Positions 4,354 to 43,745 of a stretch of 64,000 nucleotides of DNA are shown one piece after another. The DNA comes from an uncultured Cytophagales bacterium (GTDB taxonomy: Bacteria; Bacteroidota; Bacteroidia; Cytophagales; Bernardetiaceae). Numbering within the stretch: the first letter of the stretch is position 1; each line of letters begins with the position of its first letter. The notes beneath the pieces were generated by a model that was not told the origin of the DNA, did no database searches, and saw only the letters and a list, made by a program, of their open reading frames with translations. Position numbers and translations under genes: made by a program. Where the stretch lies: positions 253,534 to 317,533 of the forward strand of contig CAVXHP010000006.1 of NCBI GenBank assembly GCA_963761725.1, written 5' to 3'.

Positions 4354-5541
4354 CTATTCCAACCAACTATAGGCATAATTTGTATCTACATACTCCAAAG
4401 CTTGTTTTGTCAGATAAAGAGGACGAAATGTATCGACCATAACTGCATATTCATGAGTAGCTTTTTTACCAATACTTGCCTCATAGGTACCAGGGTGAGG
4501 ACCATGAACAATACCTCCAGGATGTATAGTAAAAGACCCTCTATCAATTCCTTTTCTGCTCATAAAATCACCTTCTGCATAGAAAAGCACTTCATCAGAA
4601 TCTATATTTGAATGATTGTACGGTGCAGGAATAGAATCTGGATGATAATCAAAAAGACGAGGCACAAAGGAACAAATTACAAAACCTCCCTCTGCTTGAA
4701 AGGTCTGATGAACAGGTGGCGGCTGATGAATACGTCCCGTAATTGGCTCAAAATCATAAATTGAAAGCGTATAAGGATACAAACACCCATCCCAACCCAC
4801 AACGTCTAAAGGAGAGAAATCATAAACATGTTGGTGTAAAAAATTTCCTTTTTTTGTTTTTATTAATGTCTCATTTAGTTCCTTTTCTGTAACTAATTCT
4901 TGTGGTGGATGAATATCTCGTTCGCAATAGGGAGAATGTTCTAAAAGTTGTCCCATTTTATTTCTATATCAATTAACTGTTTCGATAGGTGCACTAGATT
5001 CAGTAATCATCATTCTGACTTCTATTTTATTTCCATCTTCATCTACTTCTTCATCAAATTCCATTTTATATACTGTTGTTCTTGGAATGACTACATAATC
5101 TCCTTTTTTTACTCTTAGTTTTCCTTGTGGACAATACAGATACCCATTACCATCGTGCATATAAATCACTTCGTCTTTTTCACCATTTTTATAAAAGTAA
5201 TCCATTGTGTTTTTGCTTGGATTACAAATTGACAAAATACAATCATTATTGGCAAGCAAAGGAACACGAGCATCTAGAAAATCGCCTCCTGTTCTTTCGG
5301 AGAGTGAAGTCTTCAAGTGCATCGGCTGAAGTGGGTAATCTGTGAGCAATTCTGTTTTGATAGGAACTGGCTCAAGCATTTTTTTTATTCTTGTAGGTGG
5401 ATTGATATGATAAAGTATTGTATAGATACCATCAAATCCACGAGAACTGACGAGCTGTTCGTGATATAGACTACCATCTTCTTGTCTAAATTGTGTATGT
5501 CTTTTGGGAGGAATTTGTCCCATTTTTTGGTAATAACTCAT
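4354..5541 (-). pseudogene. hmgA: Homogentisate 1,2-dioxygenase interrupted by one in-frame TGA (4969-4971); both halves are in the same frame
   Basis: The N-terminal half (MSYYQKMGQIPPKRHTQFR...) and the C-terminal half (...FVPRLFDYHPDSIPAPYNHSNIDSDEVLFYAEGDF...HPGGIVHGPHPG) are typical of HGD. Track ORFs 4969..5541 and 4354..4956 are in the same frame (5541-4956=585), separated by ...ETVN-TGA-YRNK-MGQ... Confidence 0.6.
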
Positions 5542-5828
5542 TTTTTAGTAGTGTTTATTATATGATTTTGTGGTTGGCTTATTTTGTTTTTTATTAAAAG
5601 TAGAACTCTGATAACTTATTTTAGTTTAGAGTTGAAACAATTAATGAGTTGCATTTATTTTTGTAATTCTTAGGTATAAGAAAGTACAATTTATTTGAAA
5701 ATGGAAATTTACATAAAAATAGTGCGACATCTCTATTAGCTAGGATTTTTTTTGTGTTATCTTTGTGCGTATTTTTAAATTGCTTTTTCTAAGAAAAATT
5801 TTCTTCAAAAAAACAGAAACAAACGTTC

Positions 5829-7069: not shown

Positions 7070-7684
7070 TTATTCCCTTCTACCTTTTCTATTTTCACCA
7101 CGTTTTGCTTTTCGATCTGTTTTAATTTCTTGATAATTAGCAAATTGCTCATCTGAAAGAATAGATTTCAATTCAGTTTCGAAGGCTGTTTTCAGTTTCT
7201 CTACTTCTGTCTTATCTATTCTTTCTTCTCCTGCTGCTTCTTTTAGAGCTTTCATTTTAGTCATGCGAGTTATCAAAGCAGTCTTTACCTTTGCAGTTTG
7301 TGCATCATTTAAAGATAATTCTGTTTTCCATTTCTCTACCCGTTTTTCAGCTCGGCTTTCTGGGTTTTTGCGTTCTGCTTTTAATGCTTCTGCTTTTTTA
7401 CGCTGTTCTGGTGTCAGAATTTTGTCCATTTCTGCTTTAAATTCTGCTCGGTTTTCTTTTCTTTGAGTATTACTTTCTTCTTTCTTTTTTTGATGAAGAG
7501 CTTTTATTTGTTCTACTTGAGCATTAGAAAGTTCTAATTCTGTTTTCATTTTTTCTAACCTTTCCTTTTTATTGTGATGATGTTTTCCTTTCTCGTGTTC
7601 TTGAGCAAAACTACTGACCAAGAAAACAAATAATAAAGCAAAAACTAAAACTGAAGATAAAATAAGTTTTTGAATATTTTTCAT
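7070..7684 (-). CDS. Periplasmic Spy/CpxP-like LTXXQ-motif protein
   Basis: Signal peptide followed by a highly charged helical protein with repeated LSNAQ/LTPEQ/LNDAQ/LSDEQ motifs. Confidence 0.55.
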   Translation of the reverse strand: MKNIQKLILSSVLVFALLFVFLVSSFAQEHEKGKHHHNKKERLEKMKTELELSNAQVEQIKALHQKKKEESNTQRKENRAEFKAEMDKILTPEQRKKAEALKAERKNPESRAEKRVEKWKTELSLNDAQTAKVKTALITRMTKMKALKEAAGEERIDKTEVEKLKTAFETELKSILSDEQFANYQEIKTDRKAKRGENRKGRRE

Positions 7685-8654: not shown

Positions 8655-10904
8655 GTGATTAGCGAGTTGGTACATTATAAAATAGATATGAGAAATAGGG
8701 AATACAATTATTATAAAATATACTTAAGACTATTTTTAGTAGTTCTTATCTGCATTCCTATTTTTTTGGTAAAAGCTCAAAACAACACTTCTAAAGTAGT
8801 TCAGGGTGATTCTTTAAAGACAATATGGATCTCCTCTCAACAAGAAAAAATAATTATTTCTGGTTCTTCTCAAATTGCTGAAGACAAAACAGGTTTTTTA
8901 TCTATTCAGAAAGCCATCAAAACATTAAACTTTGAGAATTCTAGTATAGAAAAACCTAATTTTGGTTATACTTCTTCTGCCTACTGGTGTAGGTTTCAAA
9001 TTCAAAACGCAGCAAATGTTGCTCAACTTCGCTGGTTAGAAGTGCAATATCCTTCAGTAGATTCTGTTTGGCTTTATGAGGTAGATAGTGCACAGAATAT
9101 TGTTCAAGTTAGATTGGTAGGTGATAGAATGCCATTTAATGTGAGAGAAATAAAAGATGCTGATTTGGTTTTTATATTAAATATTGATGCTAGAAAGACC
9201 AGAACGTATTATATGCGATTTAAGACAGAAGGAACAATGACCTTTCCGTTGGTACTTTGGCAGCCTCAAGCATTTAGTGAACAGACAGCCAAAGACAGGT
9301 TTGGTTTTGGTATTTATTATGGAATTATTGTCGTGATGGTGTTCTATAATTTATTTATTTTCTTTTCTTTAAGAGATAGAGCCTATTTGTATTACGTACT
9401 TACCATTATTTCGATTGCACTTTTTCAGCTTGCTTTTAATGGATTGGGATTTCAGTATTTGTGGGGAGATTTTTATGCTTTTAATGATATTGCTATGCCT
9501 TTCTCAATCATTTGTTTTTCCTTTATCTCTCTGCTCTTTGCAAGGCAGTTTTTGCATCTAAGAGAACTTCTCCCTAAAATAGATAGAATAGTTTTGATTT
9601 TTGTTGCACTAATTATCATCGAACTTTTGCTAGTCTTTCTTCTTCCTTACAAAATCATGATAAAAGTAAGCTCTATTACTGGAGTAATTGCGACAAGTTT
9701 GCTTTTTTATATGGGTGTAACGAGTTATAGAAAGGGATATAAATCAGCTATCTACTTCTTGATAGCTTGGTCTTTGTTTTGGATAGGTATTTTATTAAGT
9801 ATTTTTAAAGGCTTTGGTCTTGTATCTACCAATTTTATTACGACTTATGCTATACAGATTGGTTCGGCTTTAGAAGTTATTTTATTATCTCTAGGACTTG
9901 CAGACCGTATAAACACGCTAAAAAGTCAGCTTTCTCAAAAAATGATAGCCGAAAAAAATCAGAAAATAGAAAACGAAATAAGACAACGTTATTTAATAGA
10001 AACTCAAAATCAGCAATTAGAAAAACTAGTAACCGAACGAACAGCAGATTTGGAGCAAAAAACAACAGAATTACAAAGTCAAAATCAGAAAATAACAGAC
10101 AGCTTGAAATATGCAAAGCGTATTCAGGAAGCAATTTTGCCTCCCAAAGAAGAACGAGACGGTATTTTGGGAAATCATTTTGTGTTCTTTAAGCCAAAAG
10201 ATATTGTTTCTGGAGATTTTTACTGGATTTCAGAGCATAAAGAACAACAAAAAATAGTTATTGCAGCTGTAGATTGTACAGGACATGGAGTTCCGGGAGC
10301 TTTTATGTCTATTATCGGAAATAATTTATTAAATCAGATTATTAACGAAAAACAAATATTTCATCCTTCTCTGATTTTGGAAAAATTGCATAAAGGTGTT
10401 CGTACTGTCCTAAAGCAAGATTACGATTCACATTCAAGTTCTATAAATACTTCTAGGGACGGAATGGATATTGCACTTTGTGTTATCAATAGAAAAGAAA
10501 ATACATTAGAATTTGCAGGAGCAAATCGTCCTTTATGGATTGTGAAAGATGGAAACTTTGAAGAAATAAAAGGAGATAGAAAAGCAATTGGAGGTTGGCA
10601 AAACGAAACAAAACGAGAATTTACGACACATTCGGTTGTTTTGAATGGAAATATGAATGTCTATTTAGCTTCTGATGGATATAGCGACCAATTTGGAGGA
10701 TGTGATGAAGAAGGACAAGCAAGTAAAAAATTTATGTCCAAAAACTTCAAAAAGCTATTATTAGATATGAATACCAAGAATGATAAAGTACAAAGCCTAG
10801 AAAATCAGTATTCTACTTTAGAAGATGTTTTGGAGAAATGGAAAGGTGATGAACAGCAAATTGACGATGTTTTGGTGGTTGGTTTTAGTGTTAGCAAAGA
10901 ATAG
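8655..10904 (+). CDS. 7TM-DISM receptor fused to SpoIIE/PP2C-family serine phosphatase
   Basis: 749 aa. It has a signal peptide and an extracellular domain, then 7 TM helices, a coiled coil, and a C-terminal PP2C-like domain (DCTGHGVPGAFMSIIGNNLL ... DGYSDQFGG). Confidence 0.7.
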   Translation: MISELVHYKIDMRNREYNYYKIYLRLFLVVLICIPIFLVKAQNNTSKVVQGDSLKTIWISSQQEKIIISGSSQIAEDKTGFLSIQKAIKTLNFENSSIEKPNFGYTSSAYWCRFQIQNAANVAQLRWLEVQYPSVDSVWLYEVDSAQNIVQVRLVGDRMPFNVREIKDADLVFILNIDARKTRTYYMRFKTEGTMTFPLVLWQPQAFSEQTAKDRFGFGIYYGIIVVMVFYNLFIFFSLRDRAYLYYVLTIISIALFQLAFNGLGFQYLWGDFYAFNDIAMPFSIICFSFISLLFARQFLHLRELLPKIDRIVLIFVALIIIELLLVFLLPYKIMIKVSSITGVIATSLLFYMGVTSYRKGYKSAIYFLIAWSLFWIGILLSIFKGFGLVSTNFITTYAIQIGSALEVILLSLGLADRINTLKSQLSQKMIAEKNQKIENEIRQRYLIETQNQQLEKLVTERTADLEQKTTELQSQNQKITDSLKYAKRIQEAILPPKEERDGILGNHFVFFKPKDIVSGDFYWISEHKEQQKIVIAAVDCTGHGVPGAFMSIIGNNLLNQIINEKQIFHPSLILEKLHKGVRTVLKQDYDSHSSSINTSRDGMDIALCVINRKENTLEFAGANRPLWIVKDGNFEEIKGDRKAIGGWQNETKREFTTHSVVLNGNMNVYLASDGYSDQFGGCDEEGQASKKFMSKNFKKLLLDMNTKNDKVQSLENQYSTLEDVLEKWKGDEQQIDDVLVVGFSVSKE

Positions 10905-33066: not shown

Positions 33067-34111
33067 ATGTTGAAGCATATAAAACATAGCCTATTTATAA
33101 CCATACTTTTCATTTTTGGAGGTTGTTCTTTTCGACAACAACAATAATAAAGAAAAAACAGACGAATTCATAAACGTCTATAATTGGACATATGTTATTC
33201 CTTCTGAGGTAATTACAGATTTTGAAAAAACATATCATGTGAAAGTAAATTATGATAATTACTCTTCTAATGAAGAATTATTAGCTAAAATACAAAGCCC
33301 ATCACATAATTACGATTTAATTTTTCCTAGTGATTATATGGTGCAAATAATGATAAAACAAGATTTATTAGCACCATTGAATTACAGTAATATTCCTAAT
33401 TCAGAAAATATTTCAGACGATTTTAAAGGCTTATTTTTTGACCCTAAAGATAAATATAGCATACCTTTTGAATGGTCTACAGCAGGTATTAGTGTCAATA
33501 CTAATAAAGTTCAGAATTACAATAAGTCGTGGGATATACTATTTGATGAAAAGTTTAAGAATGATGTAACAGTGTTAGATGACATGAGGTATGGTATTTT
33601 ACCAGCTATATTTAAGCTAGGTTACAATCCAAACACAAAGGAAGAAGACGAGATTAATAAAGCAAAAGAATTGATGTTTAAACAAAAAGAATTTGTTAAA
33701 GCATATAGTAGTGATACTTATATTGATATGCTAAAAAAAGAAGAAGTTGCTATTGCTTATGGTTGGAGTATAGACTTATTAAAAATCCAAAAGGAAAAAC
33801 CACACATTCGTTATTTTATTCCCAAAGAAGGTTCTACAAAAATTATAGAATTGATGTGTATTCCAAAAGAATCTAAAAGAAAAGGTTTAGCAGAAAAGTT
33901 TATTAATTACATACTAATTCCAGAGATTCACGCTAAAATCTCTAACTATTCAATGGCAACAAACCCTAATGAGAAGGCAAAACCTTTTATAAACGAAAAT
34001 TATAGAAGTATTAGTGATAGCGTTGATATGGACAAGCTCTTTTTTCTGAAAGATGTTGGAGACGCAACTATATTTTATGATAATGCTTGGAATGATATAA
34101 AAAATAAGTAA
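33067..34111 (+). pseudogene. potD: PotD/PotF-like periplasmic polyamine-binding lipoprotein; the signal peptide is out of frame with the body
   Basis: The body (33116-34111, TTG start in the track) has PotD-like motifs (VYNWTYVIPSEVITDFEKTYHVKVNYDNYSSNEELLAKI). The lipoprotein signal MLKHIKHSLFITILFIFGGCSF (33067-) is in the -1 frame relative to the body. Removing one T from the T4 run at 33129-33132 joins them. Confidence 0.55.
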
Positions 34112-34257
34112 TGTGATTAAAATTAGTTTTAACTTTTTTAATCAAAATGAACCTACTCCCCCACCAAATAGCCCAAAAGTTATGAGTTTCCGAAAGGACA
34201 ATCTATAATTATAGAAAAAAAATAAAAGGTAAATTCAAAGAAGAGCTAAGAAACGGC

Positions 34258-34737
34258 ATGACTTACCTAGAGTTTGTACCATTTTTAGAGTATGCAAAAT
34301 CACTTGGCAATACCTTTCCGAAAGATTCAGAAATATTTCCGAATATTCAGAAAGAGGCACAAAATGATTCAGAAAAAGTGAAAGAAAACAAGATAGAAAA
34401 GCCAAATTGAAATTTCTGAAATATTTCGGAAAGGGTTGCAGAAGTTTCCGAAAGCAAGGAAAATACCCAAAACCGAAATAAAAAGAAAAAACAGCTAGAA
34501 AATTATAGCAATAATCTAAATGAACAAGTTCAAAAATATGCACTTGCATTTAATGAAGAAAAAGCAGAGAGAAAAGAATTACAAAAAAAATACGATACTT
34601 TAGAAACTAGATTTTTGGATAAGGTAGAAGAAGTAGCTCGTTTTAAATGAAAAACAGCTTTATTCTTTGCACTTTTGGGAGGACTTGCTTTTGCTCTTAC
34701 ACTAATTTTAGTTTACCTACTCTTTCTCAAAACCTAA
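34258..34737 (+). other. 160-codon frame open only if TGA is sense: coiled-coil protein with a C-terminal TM anchor (possible mobilization/partition-like protein)
   Basis: It is a single frame from ATG 34258 to TAA 34735-34737. In-frame TGA codons lie at 34408, 34417 and 34648. There is no in-frame TAA/TAG. The C-terminus KTALFFALLGGLAFALTLILVYLLFLKT is a TM helix. Confidence 0.4.
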
Positions 34738-34814
34738 AGAAAAACAACGTTGTCTTTTTTTATTTTACTATTTTATATATTTTACGCAGCTTAAAGACCA
34801 GTTCAGACCTAGTG

Positions 34815-34912
34815 TTTCAGACTTAAAGATGGAATAAGATAGGTCTAAATAAGAGTATTATGGGGTAAAATATGAATAAATTAGGGTTTAAGATGGAATA
34901 AGATAGGTTCTA
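34815..34912. repeat. Putative iterons: two copies of TTAA(A)GATGGAATAAGATAGGT(C/T)CT spaced ~73 bp apart, 120-220 bp upstream of the Rep_3 gene
   Basis: Direct repeats lie at ~34815-34840 and ~34888-34912. A related copy (CTAAGATGGAATGTTGCATAGG) lies at ~36768-36790. Confidence 0.45.
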
Positions 34913-35034
34913 TATATGAGAAAAATGAGGTTGTTGAAAAAATAAGTATGGAAATAAAAGTTTTCCACTCATATTTTAGCTTGTATTTATGTAAATTTTC
35001 CTTAGATTTTTAGTGTTTAGCTTATCTTACTGCA

Positions 35035-36231
35035 ATGGAAAAAGCCACACAACAGTTAGTAGTAAAGCATAATTATCTGATTAATGCCAAATATGATTTT
35101 TCTCTTTTAGAAATGAAGGTATTTTTGTTAGCCGTTTCTAAAATACAGCCACAAGATAAAACAACTACCAAGTATAGAATTTATGTAAAAGATTTTAAGC
35201 AACTTGTAAACACACAATCTAAGCAGGAATATAAAAGAGTGAAAGCAACCGTTAAAAGTCTAATGAAAAAGATTGTAGAAATACCAAGAGGAGAAGATAA
35301 ATCTGTTTTGATGTGTCAATTATTTTGACCTTCTGTTTACCACGACGGAGAAGGCTATGTAGAAATTCAGTTTTATGAAGAAATAAGAGCTTATTTATTA
35401 GAACTCAAAGAGAGATTTACACAGTATAACCTTCACAATATTGTCAGAATAAAATCCTTTTCCAGTATTAGAATCTATGAATTACTCAAACAGTACGAAA
35501 CGATAGGAAAAAGAACTTTTGAACTTACAGAGCTAAAAAGTATTCTAAAGGTAGAGAAAAAGTATAAATCATACGCTGATTTTAAAAGGTATATTTTAAA
35601 GAGAGCGCAGAAAGAAGTTTGAGCCTATTGTGATATTTCATTTACCTTTAAAGAAATCAAAAAGGGTAGGAGAGTAAATAAATTAGTGTTTTACATCCAA
35701 AGGAAGGAAAAAAAAGATACTCAAAACCCAGTTCAGACCGTCGTAGAAAATGATTTAAGTGCAAAATTTTTGCTTACCCCTAGACAAGTCCGTGAAGTGC
35801 TAAAAAAATATGAGAATGATTTGCTTCATTTAGAGAAAATTCTTTGAGAAATAGCTAAGAAATATAAAACAGGAGAAATAGAAAAATTAGGAGCTTATAC
35901 TTTCAAAACTTTAATAGAAGGAAAACACGAAAAAAGTCTTTTTGATGAAGAAGTCCAAATAGAAAAAGACAAAAAGCAACAGAAGAAAGCAGCAAAGATA
36001 GAAGAACAAAAACAGAGTGAAAAAGATAAACAGAAAACACAAGAAGAAAAAGAGCAGCTAATCACTCAGATAGAAAAAGCACTTTCAGAAGATGAAAAAA
36101 ATAGTTTGGAAGAGGAATTTAAAACTCATATTTCAAAACCTCATTTGCAACAACTAAGCGAACGCCCACGAGGAAAGAAGATATTACGACAAAATTTTTT
36201 GGCTAAAAAGTTCCTATCCGAAGACGATTAA
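35035..36231 (+). pseudogene. Rep_3-family plasmid replication initiator containing three in-frame TGA codons (open only if TGA is sense)
   Basis: The N-terminus VVKHNYLINAKYDFSLLEMKVFLLAVSKIQ is Rep_3-like. So are the core RFTQYNLHNIVRIKSFSSIRIYELLKQYE and KSYADFKRYILKRAQKEV...FTFKEIKKGRRVNKLVF. The frame is continuous from 35035 to TAA 36229-36231. TGA codons lie at 35326, 35620 and 35845. There is no TGG codon in the ORF. Confidence 0.7.
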
Positions 36232-36254
36232 ATTTTATTTTCAACTTTGTTTGA

Positions 36255-36689
36255 ATGGAAAAGACAAAAGCAGATTTTGATTTGCGAAACAAGCAGAAAC
36301 AAAAAATAGAAAAAAGTGATGATTCTATACTTTCAGTTCGTGAATGACAACTTTGGCGATATTATGAGTGAATGAATGTAGGTAACGAACAATCAAAATG
36401 AAGAGAATGAAATTTTAGAAGAGTAGGTTTGATTCTAAACAAAAAAGTAGGTCGTTGAATGGTTCTTATTCTACCTATCACAACAAAATACAAAGAAGAA
36501 CATAGGGTTTACAAACTTCTCATTAAGAACCCTACTCAATACGGACTTTCAAATCCAAGTGCATTTATCTTAAATCGTTTCAACGTTATTTCTACAAAAA
36601 GATTAATTAAGGAAAAATCTGATTCTGTTTTACACTCTAATTTTTTGCAACTTTTGAAGAGGAAAATAATTAGCACTATTCACGAATAA
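36255..36689 (+). pseudogene. MazF/PemK-like toxin gene containing five in-frame TGA codons (open only if TGA is sense)
   Basis: A single frame runs from 36255 to TAA 36687-36689. TGA codons lie at 36345, 36369, 36399, 36408 and 36456. ...VGNEQSK-x-RE-x-NFRRVGLILNKKVGR-x-MVLILPITTKYKEEHRVYKLLIK...ISTKRLI parallels the MazF G-x-E-Q...R-P...P-x-T-T core. Track ORF 36459..36689 is only the tail of this frame. Confidence 0.5.
36624..36670. repeat. ~47-bp direct repeat A (copy 1), core TCTGTTTTACACTCTAATTTTTTGCAACTT
   Basis: The same 30-bp core plus a similar tail recurs at 39182-39228. Together they bracket the nuclease cassette. Confidence 0.6.
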
Positions 36690-36879: not shown

Positions 36880-38241
36880 ATGATTATAGTTAGACCTAGG
36901 TTGAATGATTATCATAACATTCCATTCACACAAGAAGAAGTAGATTTTGCAATTCCTTATTTGAATGAAGATATACCTTTATATGTTGATCCATTTTTAT
37001 TGTGGAAATCTCCATCACTTCAAGATAATTCTTTGCATACAGTTATCATCAACTCATTTAATCATCTTGGTCATTTAGTTAATACAAATAAAGAAGACAA
37101 AGCTATTGATATTCTGGTACAAACAAGTGAATGTAATGAAGTTGGAATGGGTAATTCAAAAACAAGAATAGGAAAACCAATAGGACATAAAACAGCTAAA
37201 GAAATATTGAATTTATTTATAAATATTCCTCAGTTAAAAAGCTCTGGTTTCGTCCATTTTGAAAGTATTCAACTACTTGTTAATGGTATTTCAAAGGATA
37301 GAATTAGTGATTTTACTACTAGCTTTATTAAATCTTTTCTAATAGATTATACAATAGAACAATGTGAAAAATATCACATACCTATTCATTCTGTAAAAAT
37401 AGAATCACTTTATAGTTACAAAGAAAATTCTATAATTTCAGAGAACGTTTATTTACCTACGAATCCTGAAAATAACTCTCCTATTTTGTTTGTTCCAAAA
37501 AGATGGTTAAGATTCATTCCTTGGATAAATTTTGATGACTACTATAAAACCTTTCAATTAAAAGATACACAACAACAAAAAGATAGAATTCCATTATTGA
37601 ATTACAATAGACAGAATTTCGATGCTGTTATGGCTTATGTAAAAATTAAGGAAAGTGAAAGAAAATTATGTAAAAATGACTTGATATTTAAGCCTATTTC
37701 AAAGACTTCTGTTACTAGAAAGGTAAATACAATTATTAAACTAGATACAGGCAAGACAAATAATGCTGATATTGAATTTGAAAAAAATATTTGTTCTGTA
37801 CTTCCTACGACATTCTTTCCATATTTGGATTTTGCTGAAGCACAAAGTAGAACTGTAGATGGAGTACATATAAGAGATTTAATATTTTATAATAATCGTT
37901 CTCACTCTTTCCTTGAGGAAATATATGAACAGTATGAATGTAAACAGATTATTTTTGAACTAAAGAATGTTAAGGAGCTAAGTAATGAACACGTAAATCA
38001 ACTGAATAGATACTTAAAAGAGCAATTTGGTAAATTTGGTGTTTTAGTAACGAGAAGCCCTCCATCTAAGAAAGTCCTGAAAAACATAATAAATTTATGG
38101 TCAGGTCAGCGAAAATGTATTTTAGTTCTTACAGATGAAGACATGAAATTAATAGGCAGTCTTTATCAAGGAAATCAAAGACCAGCCATTGATATTTTAA
38201 AGAAAAAATATGTAGAGTTTACAAGAGATTGTCCATCCTAA
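36880..38241 (+). CDS. 453-aa protein with an unknown N-terminal domain and a C-terminal Mrr-like PD-(D/E)xK restriction-endonuclease-like domain
   Basis: The C-terminal region TVDGVHIRDLIFYNN...QIIFELKNVKELSNEHVNQLNRYLKEQFGKFGVLVTRSPPSKKV matches the hydrophobic-D ... hydrophobic-ExK ... vLvT layout of the Mrr_cat/PD-(D/E)xK fold. This is a motif-level call. Confidence 0.45.
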   Translation: MIIVRPRLNDYHNIPFTQEEVDFAIPYLNEDIPLYVDPFLLWKSPSLQDNSLHTVIINSFNHLGHLVNTNKEDKAIDILVQTSECNEVGMGNSKTRIGKPIGHKTAKEILNLFINIPQLKSSGFVHFESIQLLVNGISKDRISDFTTSFIKSFLIDYTIEQCEKYHIPIHSVKIESLYSYKENSIISENVYLPTNPENNSPILFVPKRWLRFIPWINFDDYYKTFQLKDTQQQKDRIPLLNYNRQNFDAVMAYVKIKESERKLCKNDLIFKPISKTSVTRKVNTIIKLDTGKTNNADIEFEKNICSVLPTTFFPYLDFAEAQSRTVDGVHIRDLIFYNNRSHSFLEEIYEQYECKQIIFELKNVKELSNEHVNQLNRYLKEQFGKFGVLVTRSPPSKKVLKNIINLWSGQRKCILVLTDEDMKLIGSLYQGNQRPAIDILKKKYVEFTRDCPS

Positions 38242-38253
38242 ATTTTAAACTAG

Positions 38254-38649
38254 ATGAATGAAGAGCAAATTAACAATTTTGAGAAATGTCAGACACAAAT
38301 TGAAGGATTATTATCTGAGATAGGTTTATTATCTAAGAAAAATCCTAATGATGCAGTAAATAAATTCAAACTTATTTTTATTAATGAATTAATTACGAAT
38401 GCTAACATAATTCTGACTTCTGACTATATGCCTTTCAAATCGTTCAATGATTTTGATGTAGATTCTGTCCCCTCTAATAGTGATGTTACTTTCATCCTAT
38501 CACAATATCTAAATTGTTTTGAGAAACTAAGAGCAGATAATATATACTGTAAGTCTGAATACATAGGAGGTAAATACCATAATAATTGGTATTGGAGAAC
38601 AGGTAATAAAAAATTAATAGCTACTTCACAACCAAACAAAATAAAATGA
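38254..38649 (+). CDS. Small protein A (131 aa), paralogous to the next gene
   Basis: It shares KKNP-D..NKFK...PSNSD...QY...R...W blocks with 38646..39062. It starts 13 nt after the nuclease-domain gene. Confidence 0.4.
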   Translation: MNEEQINNFEKCQTQIEGLLSEIGLLSKKNPNDAVNKFKLIFINELITNANIILTSDYMPFKSFNDFDVDSVPSNSDVTFILSQYLNCFEKLRADNIYCKSEYIGGKYHNNWYWRTGNKKLIATSQPNKIK

Positions 38650-39062
38650 AAAATAACAAAAAAAATGAAAAAGATTTATTTCCTTCTCAAGAAGAAGTAG
38701 ATAAATTCAAAATGTTAGAAGGTTTAATTGAATCTATTACTTTAGAAATGAAGGAATTTGCTAAGAAGAAGCCTGATGAAACATTGAATAAGTTTAAGAC
38801 TAATACAATAAATAATATTCTAAAAGACTTGAAAGAAATCATGAGAAAGGAAGCTACCAATGATTATCTTGTTTTATTAGATAAAGATGTTTTACCATCT
38901 AATAGTGATGCTGTGATTGTCATAGGACAATATAACTCAGCAATATCTCAATTTAGAGCAAAATATAATGGTAAAACAGACGAATATTCGTTACAACGTT
39001 GGTTCACACAAGAAAATCCAGGAACTCATTATAAGCAAAGAGGTTTATTAGATGGGTTGTAA
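38646..39062 (+). CDS. Small protein B (138 aa), paralog of 38254..38649
   Basis: Its start overlaps the preceding stop (ATGA). The paralog pair shares conserved KKKPDETLNKFK and PSNSD blocks. Confidence 0.4.
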   Translation: MKNNKKNEKDLFPSQEEVDKFKMLEGLIESITLEMKEFAKKKPDETLNKFKTNTINNILKDLKEIMRKEATNDYLVLLDKDVLPSNSDAVIVIGQYNSAISQFRAKYNGKTDEYSLQRWFTQENPGTHYKQRGLLDGL

Positions 39063-39181
39063 GTTTTATTTTAGTTAAAAATTATAAGCTACATCTATTA
39101 ATTTAGTGGTAGCTTTTTTTATATAAGTAACCATATTGTTAGCAAATAAAAAACATTTAATTTATTATAATTGAATCTCCT

Positions 39182-39228
39182 TCTGTTTTACACTCTAATT
39201 TTTTGCAACTTCTCAAAAGGAAAAATTT
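39182..39228. repeat. ~47-bp direct repeat A (copy 2)
   Basis: Matches 36624-36670. Confidence 0.6.
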
Positions 39229-39233
39229 CATTT

Positions 39234-39294
39234 AAAAAAATCGCCTACTCACACTAAGGAGAGTAGGAAGCTGGAGACTCAAATTAAGGTCTCT
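39234..39294. repeat. Repeat R (copy 1): AAAAAAATCGCCTACTCACACTAAGGAGAGTAGGAAGCTGGAGACTC plus a second small hairpin
   Basis: A 7-bp stem hairpin CCTACTC/GAGTAGG with an AAGGA-containing loop. A ~48-nt match lies at 39978-40027. Confidence 0.55.
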
Positions 39295-39442: not shown

Positions 39443-39778
39443 ATGTCAATAAGAAATGTATTAAGCATAAACTATAGCTTTACACAAGAACAAGAAGAAA
39501 TGATTAATTCTGAAATTCATAAACACGCTAAAGAAAATGCAGGTTTTCTAAGTAAATACTCTGTTGAGTTTAAGTCTGTTAAAATCACTGGGAATAAAAA
39601 TGGAGATTTTATTACTCTTAAAGGGAGTGGTACTGTACAAGGGCATATCACAAAAAGTAGTAATTCTAATTATACCCAAGAGGGTGTAGAGGAAAAAACA
39701 GCATACTTTAATTTTGATGTTTCCATAGATGAAGAAGATGAAATAGTGGTTGAATCTAATAGCACAACTTATATCTAA
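39443..39778 (+). CDS. Hypothetical protein (111 aa)
   Basis: Intact ORF bracketed by the R repeats and followed by a terminator hairpin. Confidence 0.3.
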   Translation: MSIRNVLSINYSFTQEQEEMINSEIHKHAKENAGFLSKYSVEFKSVKITGNKNGDFITLKGSGTVQGHITKSSNSNYTQEGVEEKTAYFNFDVSIDEEDEIVVESNSTTYI

Positions 39779-39796
39779 ATATGTTCTTTTTACTAA

Positions 39797-39840
39797 AAAT
39801 AGCCATTCATAATCAAAAATTATGAGTGGCTATTTTTCAT
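39797..39840 (+). terminator. Rho-independent terminator (ATAGCCATTCATAA...TTATGAGTGGCTAT followed by TTTT)
   Basis: A near-perfect 14-bp stem plus a T-run lies directly after 39443..39778. Confidence 0.5.
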
Positions 39841-39977
39841 TTTATAGGCATTGAAAGTATTAATGATTTATTTCATTTTTCAATTCAGAAAAGAAGTTGA
39901 ATTTATTTTGTCTTTTGGTTTTTTGCCTTTCGGTTCGCTCGTGGAAAAAGAAGAAAAGGAATAGCGAAATGTTGTTT

Positions 39978-40027
39978 AAAAAAAATTGCCTACTCACACT
40001 AAGGAGAGTAGGATGTTGGAGACTCTG
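39978..40027. repeat. Repeat R (copy 2)
   Basis: Matches 39234-39280. It lies ~40 bp before the right-hand att repeat. Confidence 0.55.
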
Positions 40028-40099: not shown

Positions 40100-40155
40100 A
40101 GGTATTTTTGTCTATATCATTTTTTACATTCACAAAAAATAACTATAACGAAACT

Positions 40156-42979: not shown

Positions 42980-43465
42980 TTAATTTTCTCCTGCAATTTC
43001 TAAAATAGTAGCAAATAATTGCTCACTTATGAAAACTCCTTGTTGCTTTACTTGAAATAATAAAGGTTTTATTTCACTAATCAATCCTACTTCTTTAGCT
43101 CTAAGAAGCACACCAAACGAACCTATATAATTGCAATTTTGCCTTTGAGCATAAGTTCTACCTAATTTCTCATCAATAATAAGTAAATCAGCTTTCAATT
43201 CTTCGTATAAAATTAAGGCTTGAGCTTCTCCTTTGTCTAAATGATTTTCTAGTTGCTGTAAAGCTAATTTATTATTAACCTCTCTTATTTCTATCCAGTC
43301 ATAACTTTTCAAATCAGTATAAAACTCTTTTTCTACTCCATTTTCTATTTCTTCATATACACCTATTGGAATATATATTTTCCCATAGATTTCTTTCAAT
43401 ATTTCTAGTTTATCTATTACCAAAAACGTAATAATAGGAGTCGTATTTGAAACTATAATATCCAT
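42980..43465 (-). CDS. DUF3368-type PIN-like toxin
   Basis: 161 aa, paired with a UPF0175-type antitoxin immediately upstream. The stop and start are adjacent. Confidence 0.5.
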   Translation of the reverse strand: MDIIVSNTTPIITFLVIDKLEILKEIYGKIYIPIGVYEEIENGVEKEFYTDLKSYDWIEIREVNNKLALQQLENHLDKGEAQALILYEELKADLLIIDEKLGRTYAQRQNCNYIGSFGVLLRAKEVGLISEIKPLLFQVKQQGVFISEQLFATILEIAGEN

Positions 43466-43466
43466 T

Positions 43467-43745
43467 TTATTTTTTATGTAATCCAGTTTTACGAGCTTTA
43501 TTTAGTTCTTCTTGTAATTCTGATGTGTCTAAATCCTCAAAAATGCTTACTTGATATTGGTTTAATATATCAATAAAAGCAATTTTTGTAACTCCTAATA
43601 AAAATGCTGCTTTCCCAGAAGATACTTTTCCTAATTCATAAAGTTTTATCAGAGCTATTTTTTTTATTTCGTAACTAAACTCTACTTCATTCATGTGAAG
43701 TAAAAAGGCTAGTTCTTGAGGAAAATCTACTTGTAGTTGTTTCAT
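43467..43745 (-). CDS. UPF0175-family antitoxin
   Basis: 92 aa with a helix-turn-helix-like core LGKVSSGKAAFLLGVTKIAFIDIL. Confidence 0.5.
   Translation of the reverse strand: MKQLQVDFPQELAFLLHMNEVEFSYEIKKIALIKLYELGKVSSGKAAFLLGVTKIAFIDILNQYQVSIFEDLDTSELQEELNKARKTGLHKK

Follow-up and report, generated by a model that had tools for sequence, protein, structure and literature searches.

Gene content and operon layout of the cassette

We analyzed a 64,000-nucleotide stretch of DNA (the window) from an uncultured Cytophagales bacterium of the family Bernardetiaceae (GenBank assembly GCA_963761725.1, contig CAVXHP010000006.1, positions 253,534 to 317,533 of the forward strand), focusing on three genes, here termed A, B1, and B2, that form a compact cassette at positions 36880-39062. 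Gene A (36880-38241, plus strand) encodes a 453-aa protein and ends in TAA; its conserved N-terminal domain (aa 1 to ~290, 36880-37749) is followed by a predicted C-terminal nuclease domain (aa ~291-453, 37750-38241) carrying the motif E301 ... D333 ... E360-x-K362 ... Q374. Two small genes, B1 (38254-38649; 131 aa, TGA stop) and B2 (38646-39062; 138 aa), lie downstream on the same strand, with a gap of 12 nt between A and B1 and a 4-nt ATGA overlap of the B1 stop with the B2 start. A terminator-like hairpin on the same strand (AAGCTAC...GTAGCTT, then TTTTT; 39086-39120) starts 24 nt past the B2 stop, with a computed RNA fold of -13.1 kcal/mol (z -2.08); it fell below the stricter G+C criterion of our terminator scan and likely marks the end of the operon. 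Given the tight spacing and the downstream hairpin, the three genes look like one operon. A sigma-70 promoter scan performed no better on this DNA than on shuffles, Bacteroidota promoters being outside the coverage of that scan.

Comparison of the two small proteins identifies B1 and B2 as paralogues (30% identity over 97 aa by BLASTP, E 4e-14), and profiles of the two subfamilies, with 20 members each, aligned in hhalign with a probability of 99.7% (E 2.6e-26). The conserved blocks of B1 are SKKxPND..NKFKL, LP(S/T)NSD, QYLNC.EKLR.DNI, and W.W. An initial annotation, made by a model from the letters of the window, had proposed this cassette as a candidate defence or addiction module, and its open reading frame (ORF) coordinates and lengths, the peptide segments that it quoted from A, the paralogy of B1 and B2, and the ATGA overlap all proved accurate. 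Overall, the locus appears to hold an intact, complete copy of a three-gene cassette. An exact look-up of the A sequence gave no hit; a variant of A that differs by one residue places the same locus in a metagenome contig of the European Nucleotide Archive (ENA).

The cassette matches the defence candidate PDC-M36

All three proteins matched models of one system in PADLOC-DB v2. Residues 1-453 of A aligned to model positions 1-457 of the 457-position PDC-M36A model (PDLC04597, E 1.2e-220), and B1 and B2 matched two PDC-M36B models over their full length (PDLC04599, E 3.3e-50; PDLC04600, E 1e-36), so that B1 falls in the first and B2 in the second PDC-M36B subfamily. In precomputed Pfam labels, A is assigned to PF28123 (DUF8370). 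PDC stands for phage defence candidate, a set of 145 untested candidates that were nominated by "guilt-by-embedding" in BREX, DISARM, and type I restriction-modification (RM) loci (Payne, Hughes, Fineran & Jackson 2024, bioRxiv 10.1101/2024.01.29.577857), and PDC-M36 is defined there as FAM_01399>>FAM_00303>>FAM_00303, i.e., one large gene followed by two of one small family (supplementary file 8). The window copy has this same architecture in all three genes, in the order large, small, small on one strand.

On these matches, the cassette is best described as a further copy of the catalogued computational candidate PDC-M36, and it is not novel as a class. The search of PADLOC models that the initial annotation had proposed thus agrees with its label of candidate defence, which is the best label currently available; its impression of an undescribed three-component combination did not hold, as the same gene order is already listed in PADLOC and A already belongs to a Pfam family. 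The window copy differs from the nominating loci in its setting, as it lies outside any BREX, DISARM, or type I RM system, in a plasmid remnant between housekeeping operons.

Protein A carries an intact PD-(D/E)xK nuclease domain

To model A, we used an alignment (A2) of 62 sequences reaching down to 22% identity, to which distant full-length relatives from an exhaustive search of representatives had been added. The resulting AlphaFold model (pLDDT 90.8, pTM 0.79) replaced a poor model built on a shallow alignment (pLDDT 67.7). Its C-terminal domain has the restriction-endonuclease-like alpha/beta core of the PD-(D/E)xK superfamily, and the nearest solved nuclease domains were those of R.BspD6I and FokI, at a sequence identity of 9-13%. 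The structural matches span ~110-200 residues, a length that agrees with the C-terminal strand-helix core (aa 316-450) that holds D333, E360-x-K362, and Q374. Among 31 close homologues, D333, E360, and K362 are invariant; across the A2 sequences, K362 and Q374 remain invariant and D333 and E360 are at least 90% conserved. The modeled fold and these residues identify the C-terminal domain of A as a PD-(D/E)xK nuclease with its catalytic motif intact, and DNA cleavage itself is predicted. A non-nuclease fold for this domain, which the initial annotation had named as an outcome that would speak against its proposal, was not what the model showed.

At the level of families, the earlier description of the domain as Mrr-like was not sustained; the nuclease fold and the D...ExK layout are conserved, but the Mrr_cat profile (PF04471) found no match. 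The Pfam scan of A at E <= 1 listed PDDEXK_3, DUF2130, NA-iREase1, and QueC only, of which a weak PDDEXK_3 match (E 9.8e-5) was the sole one to a nuclease family, and we therefore rejected membership in Mrr_cat. Compared with Mrr and other type IV restriction enzymes, A also has a mostly helical N-terminal domain that is not a known reader of modified bases, as well as two obligatory small partners that are not a feature of Mrr. The type IIS cleavage domains of FokI and of R.BspD6I-Nt.BspD6I resemble the A domain in structure, but A lacks a methyltransferase partner and the recognition domains of FokI or BspD6I, and its N-terminal 290 aa are unrelated to these enzymes. The single-gene Shedu system (SduA) likewise fuses a sensor or regulatory N-terminal domain to a PD-(D/E)xK nuclease, but A did not match SduA/DUF4263 and its matches in PADLOC were confined to PDC-M36A models. 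A weak match of B2 to Shedu covers only ~100 helical residues and may reflect composition.

The N-terminal domain has no structural relative among the proteins searched

Residues 1-290 of A are modeled as mostly helical, with a beta-hairpin at aa 170-192 and possible helix-hairpin-helix (HhH)-like segments, and the model shows weak similarities to HhH domains. Eight residues of this domain (F23, D31, E84, G91, G98, D140, D144, and P206) remain unchanged in homologues as distant as 22% identity. A Foldseek search of the A model against PDB and BFVD returned nothing at E <= 1e-3, including no significant whole-protein match, and sequence searches of PDB with profiles of A, B1, and B2 gave nothing below E 0.3. 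One distant homologue of 1144 aa (P0277) joins the A N-terminal domain (residues 2-226) to a phosphorylase-superfamily domain, PNP_UDP_1 (residues 800-943). This single example is consistent with a modular design in which a sensor or targeting domain is combined with an exchangeable effector.

The B genes accompany A across distant phyla

The family is large: a word-index search recovered 2840 relatives of A, and 1687 clusters at E <= 1e-3 came from an exhaustive search of representatives at 50% identity. With B2 as query, the word index gave only 9 relatives, and the B families were built from translated loci. For a census of gene order, we took 78 loci in which the sequence continues for 950 nt or more past A; a few of them represent one place retrieved twice. 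In 77 of the 78, A was followed by at least one B gene, B1 came directly after A in 74, and B2 was the third gene in 63. The usual arrangement A-B1-B2 (63 loci) was accompanied by A-B1-B1 (5 loci), A-B1 (4 loci), A-B2 (3 loci), and A-B1-B1-B2 (2 loci), and the remaining locus combined a partial A match with no B gene. By these architectures, the minimal unit is A with one B gene and the usual unit A with two diverged B genes, and they bear out the co-conservation on which the initial annotation had made its three-gene reading depend.

Relatives of A at 53-72% identity occur in Cytophagales, Flavobacteriia, Bacteroidales, Spirochaetes, Chlorobiales, and Paenibacillus, as well as on a Leptolyngbya plasmid (Cyanobacteriota), on a Methylobacterium plasmid (Alphaproteobacteria), and in the archaeon Methanolobus. 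Judged from these relationships, the distribution is patchy across phyla and reflects horizontal spread. Where loci in different contexts share 80-90% DNA identity, the homology starts 25-80 nt before A and ends at the end of B2, so that the three genes move together as one compact unit.

Relatives are carried by diverse mobile elements

The view that the cassette is cargo of mobile elements was supported by the contexts of its relatives, which include prophages, plasmids, integrative elements, and a casposon-like setting. On IMG/VR contigs, genes for portal, terminase, protease, tail, and endolysin proteins are found less than 6 kb from it, and in one case a reverse transcriptase is adjacent. 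In Algoriphagus, the cassette belongs to an element that also encodes an integrase, an AAA_25 protein, and a primase, and in Cyclobacterium, it is flanked by a TIR/SEFIR protein on one side and, on the other, by a 1807-aa protein that joins an SF1 helicase to an MTES_1575 nuclease. On Methanolobus metagenome contigs (L010/L011, 6725-9765), a Cas1 gene immediately precedes the cassette, here A with a single B1-like gene, and family-B DNA polymerase (PolB) genes and a second Cas1 are nearby. We take this Cas1 and PolB neighborhood to be casposon-like, and the Methanolobus copy is apparently casposon cargo. On a Methylobacterium plasmid (L107, 5931-9131), the genes immediately upstream of the cassette encode UmuD/UmuC-type translesion polymerases and share its strand, and an unrelated Leptolyngbya plasmid (L108, 5163-9191) shows the same umuDC-type arrangement, again on one strand.

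Among 131 neighboring ORFs scanned at 15 loci, defence-related families were sparse (type II methyltransferases, NERD, UvrD, and BpuJI) and mixed with ordinary genes. In the gene-neighborhood census proposed by the initial annotation, the genes of the cassette were co-conserved, and few defence genes lay near it in this 15-locus sample.

Flanking repeats are local features

In the window, the cassette is bracketed by two direct repeat copies of 51 nt on the plus strand (36616-36666 and 39174-39224) that are 90% identical and share a 31-nt exact core. They have the same register as the ~47-bp repeats first annotated at 36624-36670 and 39182-39228, and an exact 31-mer occurring twice within 7 kb is far beyond chance. 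The left copy lies within the 3' end of a PemK/MazF-like ORF upstream of A, and the right copy is an orphan PemK-like 3' end that reads ...SVLHSNFLQLLKRKNFI* and matches the PemK fragment at 88% over 17 aa (tblastn). The right copy runs directly into a second family of direct repeats (39215-39280 and 39960-40025; 66 nt, 83% identical), which contains the identical 24-nt hairpin CCTACTC-ACACTAAGGA-GAGTAGG. Between the copies of this second repeat lies an orphan acidic ORF of 111 aa (39443-39778) with a strong terminator (39795-39837). Alignment revealed three diverged junction copies in a row, each a PemK end plus hairpin, that separate the cassette and the 111-aa ORF. The array is suggestive of successive insertion or recombination events at a single hotspot within a plasmid-derived element.

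A comparable arrangement was found in Algoriphagus chordae (L004), where a 300-nt direct repeat with 77% identity brackets the cassette (7166-7465 and 10546-10845). Its upstream copy lies in the primase (Toprim) gene of the integrase-bearing element, and its downstream copy in a truncated Toprim ORF, so that in both genomes the gene immediately upstream of the cassette has its 3' part repeated on the downstream side. Among the eight loci other than the window that we compared, this primase-derived repeat was the only substantial one; six had no bracketing repeats and the seventh had a weak 28-nt match across the cassette. As the repeats derive from different genes and are mostly absent elsewhere, they are better seen as local recombination scars than as a defining part of the cassette. 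An att-like general site was rejected on the same count of one in eight and on the observation that homology between loci stops at the gene borders, and the same recombination site did not recur in different genomes. The repeats reported at first are therefore real, but the idea that they mark an exchangeable cassette did not carry over to other loci.

A proposed nuclease system regulated by the B proteins and its alternatives

We consider it somewhat better than an even bet (roughly 0.55) that the cassette is a nuclease system directed against phages or plasmids and controlled by the B proteins. In such a system, A would be the effector that cuts DNA through its FokI/R.BspD6I-like domain with the intact D-ExK site, and it is probably oligomeric, because FokI and BspD6I, its closest structural relatives, require paired domains for cutting. 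The N-terminal domain of A would bind DNA or an infection cue and so set where or when cutting occurs. B1 and B2, two diverged copies of one small protein, would most likely assemble into a hetero-oligomer bound to A and serve as its brake or as a specificity or trigger module, keeping A restrained or directed until infection. Once freed, A might attack the DNA of the invading phage or plasmid, or the cell's own DNA as a form of abortive infection, and prophages, plasmids, integrative elements, and casposons would spread the cassette as a compact unit of three genes. Support for this reading comes from the observed membership in the PDC-M36 family, with its full-length PADLOC matches, its gene order, and its embedding-based nomination in BREX, DISARM, and type I RM loci, and further from the operon, the co-conservation of A and B, the nuclease fold with its conserved catalytic residues, the patchy spread across phyla, and the carriage by mobile elements and in defence contexts. 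We also count in its favor the homologue P0277, whose pairing of the A N-terminal domain with a nucleosidase-type domain resembles the effector swapping of immune proteins.

Several observations pull the other way. The roles given to the N-terminal domain and to the B proteins are guesses, as the former has no recognizable fold relative and the latter have none by sequence. In the literature searched, no publication names PDC-M36 or DUF8370, and no experiment exists on the system; some other PDCs have been tested experimentally, and for PDC-M36 no test was found. Enrichment in defence islands was weak, with mostly ordinary neighbors in the 15-locus sample, in agreement with the remark that embedded candidates are less island-associated (Payne et al. 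2024, 10.1101/2024.01.29.577857). No homologue of A was present in 50,697 cultured phage genomes, an identity of ~55-60% is more than immune genes usually retain across distant phyla, and the umuDC neighbors on two unrelated plasmids could point to DNA-damage biology instead.

These points can be set against three other explanations. If A were a nuclease toxin and B1 and B2 its immunity proteins or antitoxins, the cassette would be an addiction module that stabilizes its carrier elements rather than stopping phages, which would suit its constant occurrence on plasmids, prophages, integrative elements, or casposons, the position of the window copy in a plasmid remnant, and a B copy number of one to three, as expected of neutralizers. 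We regard this as unlikely, because A, B1, and B2 match no toxin-antitoxin family in Pfam, NCBIfam, or PADLOC, as a type II module should, and because a two-domain protein of 453 aa with a strongly conserved non-nuclease part of 290 aa is atypical of a simple toxin; the distinction is also not sharp, as many abortive-infection systems are toxin-antitoxin-like. The umuDC-type genes directly upstream of the cassette on the Methylobacterium and Leptolyngbya plasmids, the primase that precedes it in Algoriphagus, the Cas1 gene that precedes it near PolB in Methanolobus, and the weak HhH similarities in the A model would instead fit an accessory of DNA repair or replication on mobile elements, in which a structure-specific endonuclease with a DNA-binding N-terminal domain and small subunits targets damaged or stalled DNA, not invaders. 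No Y-family polymerase was found among the neighbor families shared across the 15 other loci, and the patchy, horizontally transferred distribution is unlike that of core repair genes, so we give this explanation little credence.

A further alternative is an autonomous selfish cassette, in which A would serve as a homing or insertion nuclease and itself mobilize all three genes, with the flanking repeats as insertion footprints. Repeats bracketing the cassette both in the window and in Algoriphagus, each with a downstream copy of the 3' part of the upstream gene, are compatible with this, as are the restriction of inter-locus homology to the three genes and the unusually high sequence conservation across phyla. 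Against it, most of the other loci lack such repeats, those present are 77-90% identical rather than exact and come from different host genes, inter-locus comparison found no conserved terminal sequences, and no similarity to a transposase or recombinase was seen in A, B1, or B2, which makes a selfish origin highly improbable.

Within the reading of the cassette as a B-regulated nuclease system, a bolder proposal can be made, which we offer tentatively and hold at less than even odds. PDC-M36 may be an immune system of bacteria and archaea with a new mechanism, in which the ~290-aa domain, with its invariant acidic and glycine-rich pocket (D31, E84, G91, G98, D140, and D144) and without a structural counterpart in PDB or BFVD, senses a feature of invader DNA or a small molecule and licenses the FokI-like nuclease, with a B heterodimer as the infection-sensitive brake and with prophages, plasmids, and casposons carrying the system between phyla. 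If PDC-M36 were shown to work, it would be a widespread immune module of many bacterial phyla and of archaea and an example of defence cargo on casposons. It would also bring a new domain for sensing or regulation together with a compact FokI-type cutter, which might be of interest as a programmable or inducible nuclease. The window copy itself adds little beyond one more intact copy, and the value of this work lies in linking the locus to the existing candidate PDC-M36, in a confident model that parts a known nuclease fold from an N-terminal domain without relatives, and in a small census in which B genes almost always accompany A.

The cassette lies in a TGA-rich plasmid remnant

The cassette is part of ~6 kb of foreign DNA between potD (end at 34111) and sucD (start near 40150). 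To its left, three ORFs encode a helix-turn-helix (HTH) protein (34111-34737), a Rep3 initiator (35035-36231), and the PemK/MazF-like protein (36255-36689, plus strand; PF02452). The first two are open only with TGA read as sense, and the third reaches 144 aa only if five in-frame TGA codons are sense, leaving just a 76-aa C-terminal fragment under the standard code. Across this left part (34108-36689; 29% G+C), the ~750 codons of the three ORFs include TGA 13 times in frame and TGG once, and neither TAA nor TAG occurs. A GldD lipoprotein gene and the closest relatives of A point to a Bacteroidota host. This host, by comparison, uses the standard code, as it has long genes without in-frame TGA, encodes tryptophan by TGG, and ends 11 of 48 long ORFs with TGA. 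We rejected antisense shadows and random decay as sources of the TGA-rich ORFs, because the Rep3_N and Rep3_C profile matches extend through TGA codons and the frames are free of TAA and TAG.

When glycine, an unspecified residue (X), or tryptophan was placed at the TGA codons, glycine scored best in every Pfam family scored: PemK_toxin (26.1, 24.0, and 21.3 bits, respectively, with a cutoff of 23.1 bits), HTH_23 (21.4, 16.3, and 12.9), HTH_11 (21.5, 19.1, and 16.8), and Rep3_N (136.3, 135.9, and 135.4). These scores favor TGA as glycine, i.e., genetic code 25, and the near-absence of TGG would fit code 4 instead. Code 25 is used by Gracilibacteria and Absconditabacteria. Relatives of the PemK-like ORF were not found by word-index search, plasmid tblastn, or viral-contig scan, nor were those of the HTH ORF by plasmid tblastn, and the Rep ORF had no match in the viral-contig scan. 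A DNA search with the Rep ORF recovered two Cytophagales plasmid Rep genes, whose alignment gave no information on the TGA positions. Neither Rfam nor tRNA scans, run on the whole window, returned a hit.

The left part (34108-36689) may thus be what is left of a mobile element that came from a recoded organism or phage and is inert in its present host. The cassette, which has no in-frame TGA and uses TGA as the stop of B1, was not shaped in a code with TGA as sense. The toxin-like gene that the initial annotation had placed beside it does exist as the PemK/MazF-like ORF, but we rejected it as a working partner, as it is full-length only if TGA is sense, unlike in the host code, under which it is interrupted. 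This TGA-sense plasmid remnant is a more unusual feature of the stretch than the cassette.

A single in-frame TGA was also observed in host DNA, in a homogentisate 1,2-dioxygenase-like frame of 396 codons on the minus strand (4354-5544; ...APIETVN*YRNKMGQ...), and this interrupted frame could be a pseudogene, a sequencing error, or a case of read-through. About 4 kb downstream of the cassette, next to a VWA/CoxE-like gene, a DUF3368 (PIN-like) and UPF0175 gene pair on the minus strand (42980-43465 and ~43467-43745) is a probable toxin-antitoxin module.

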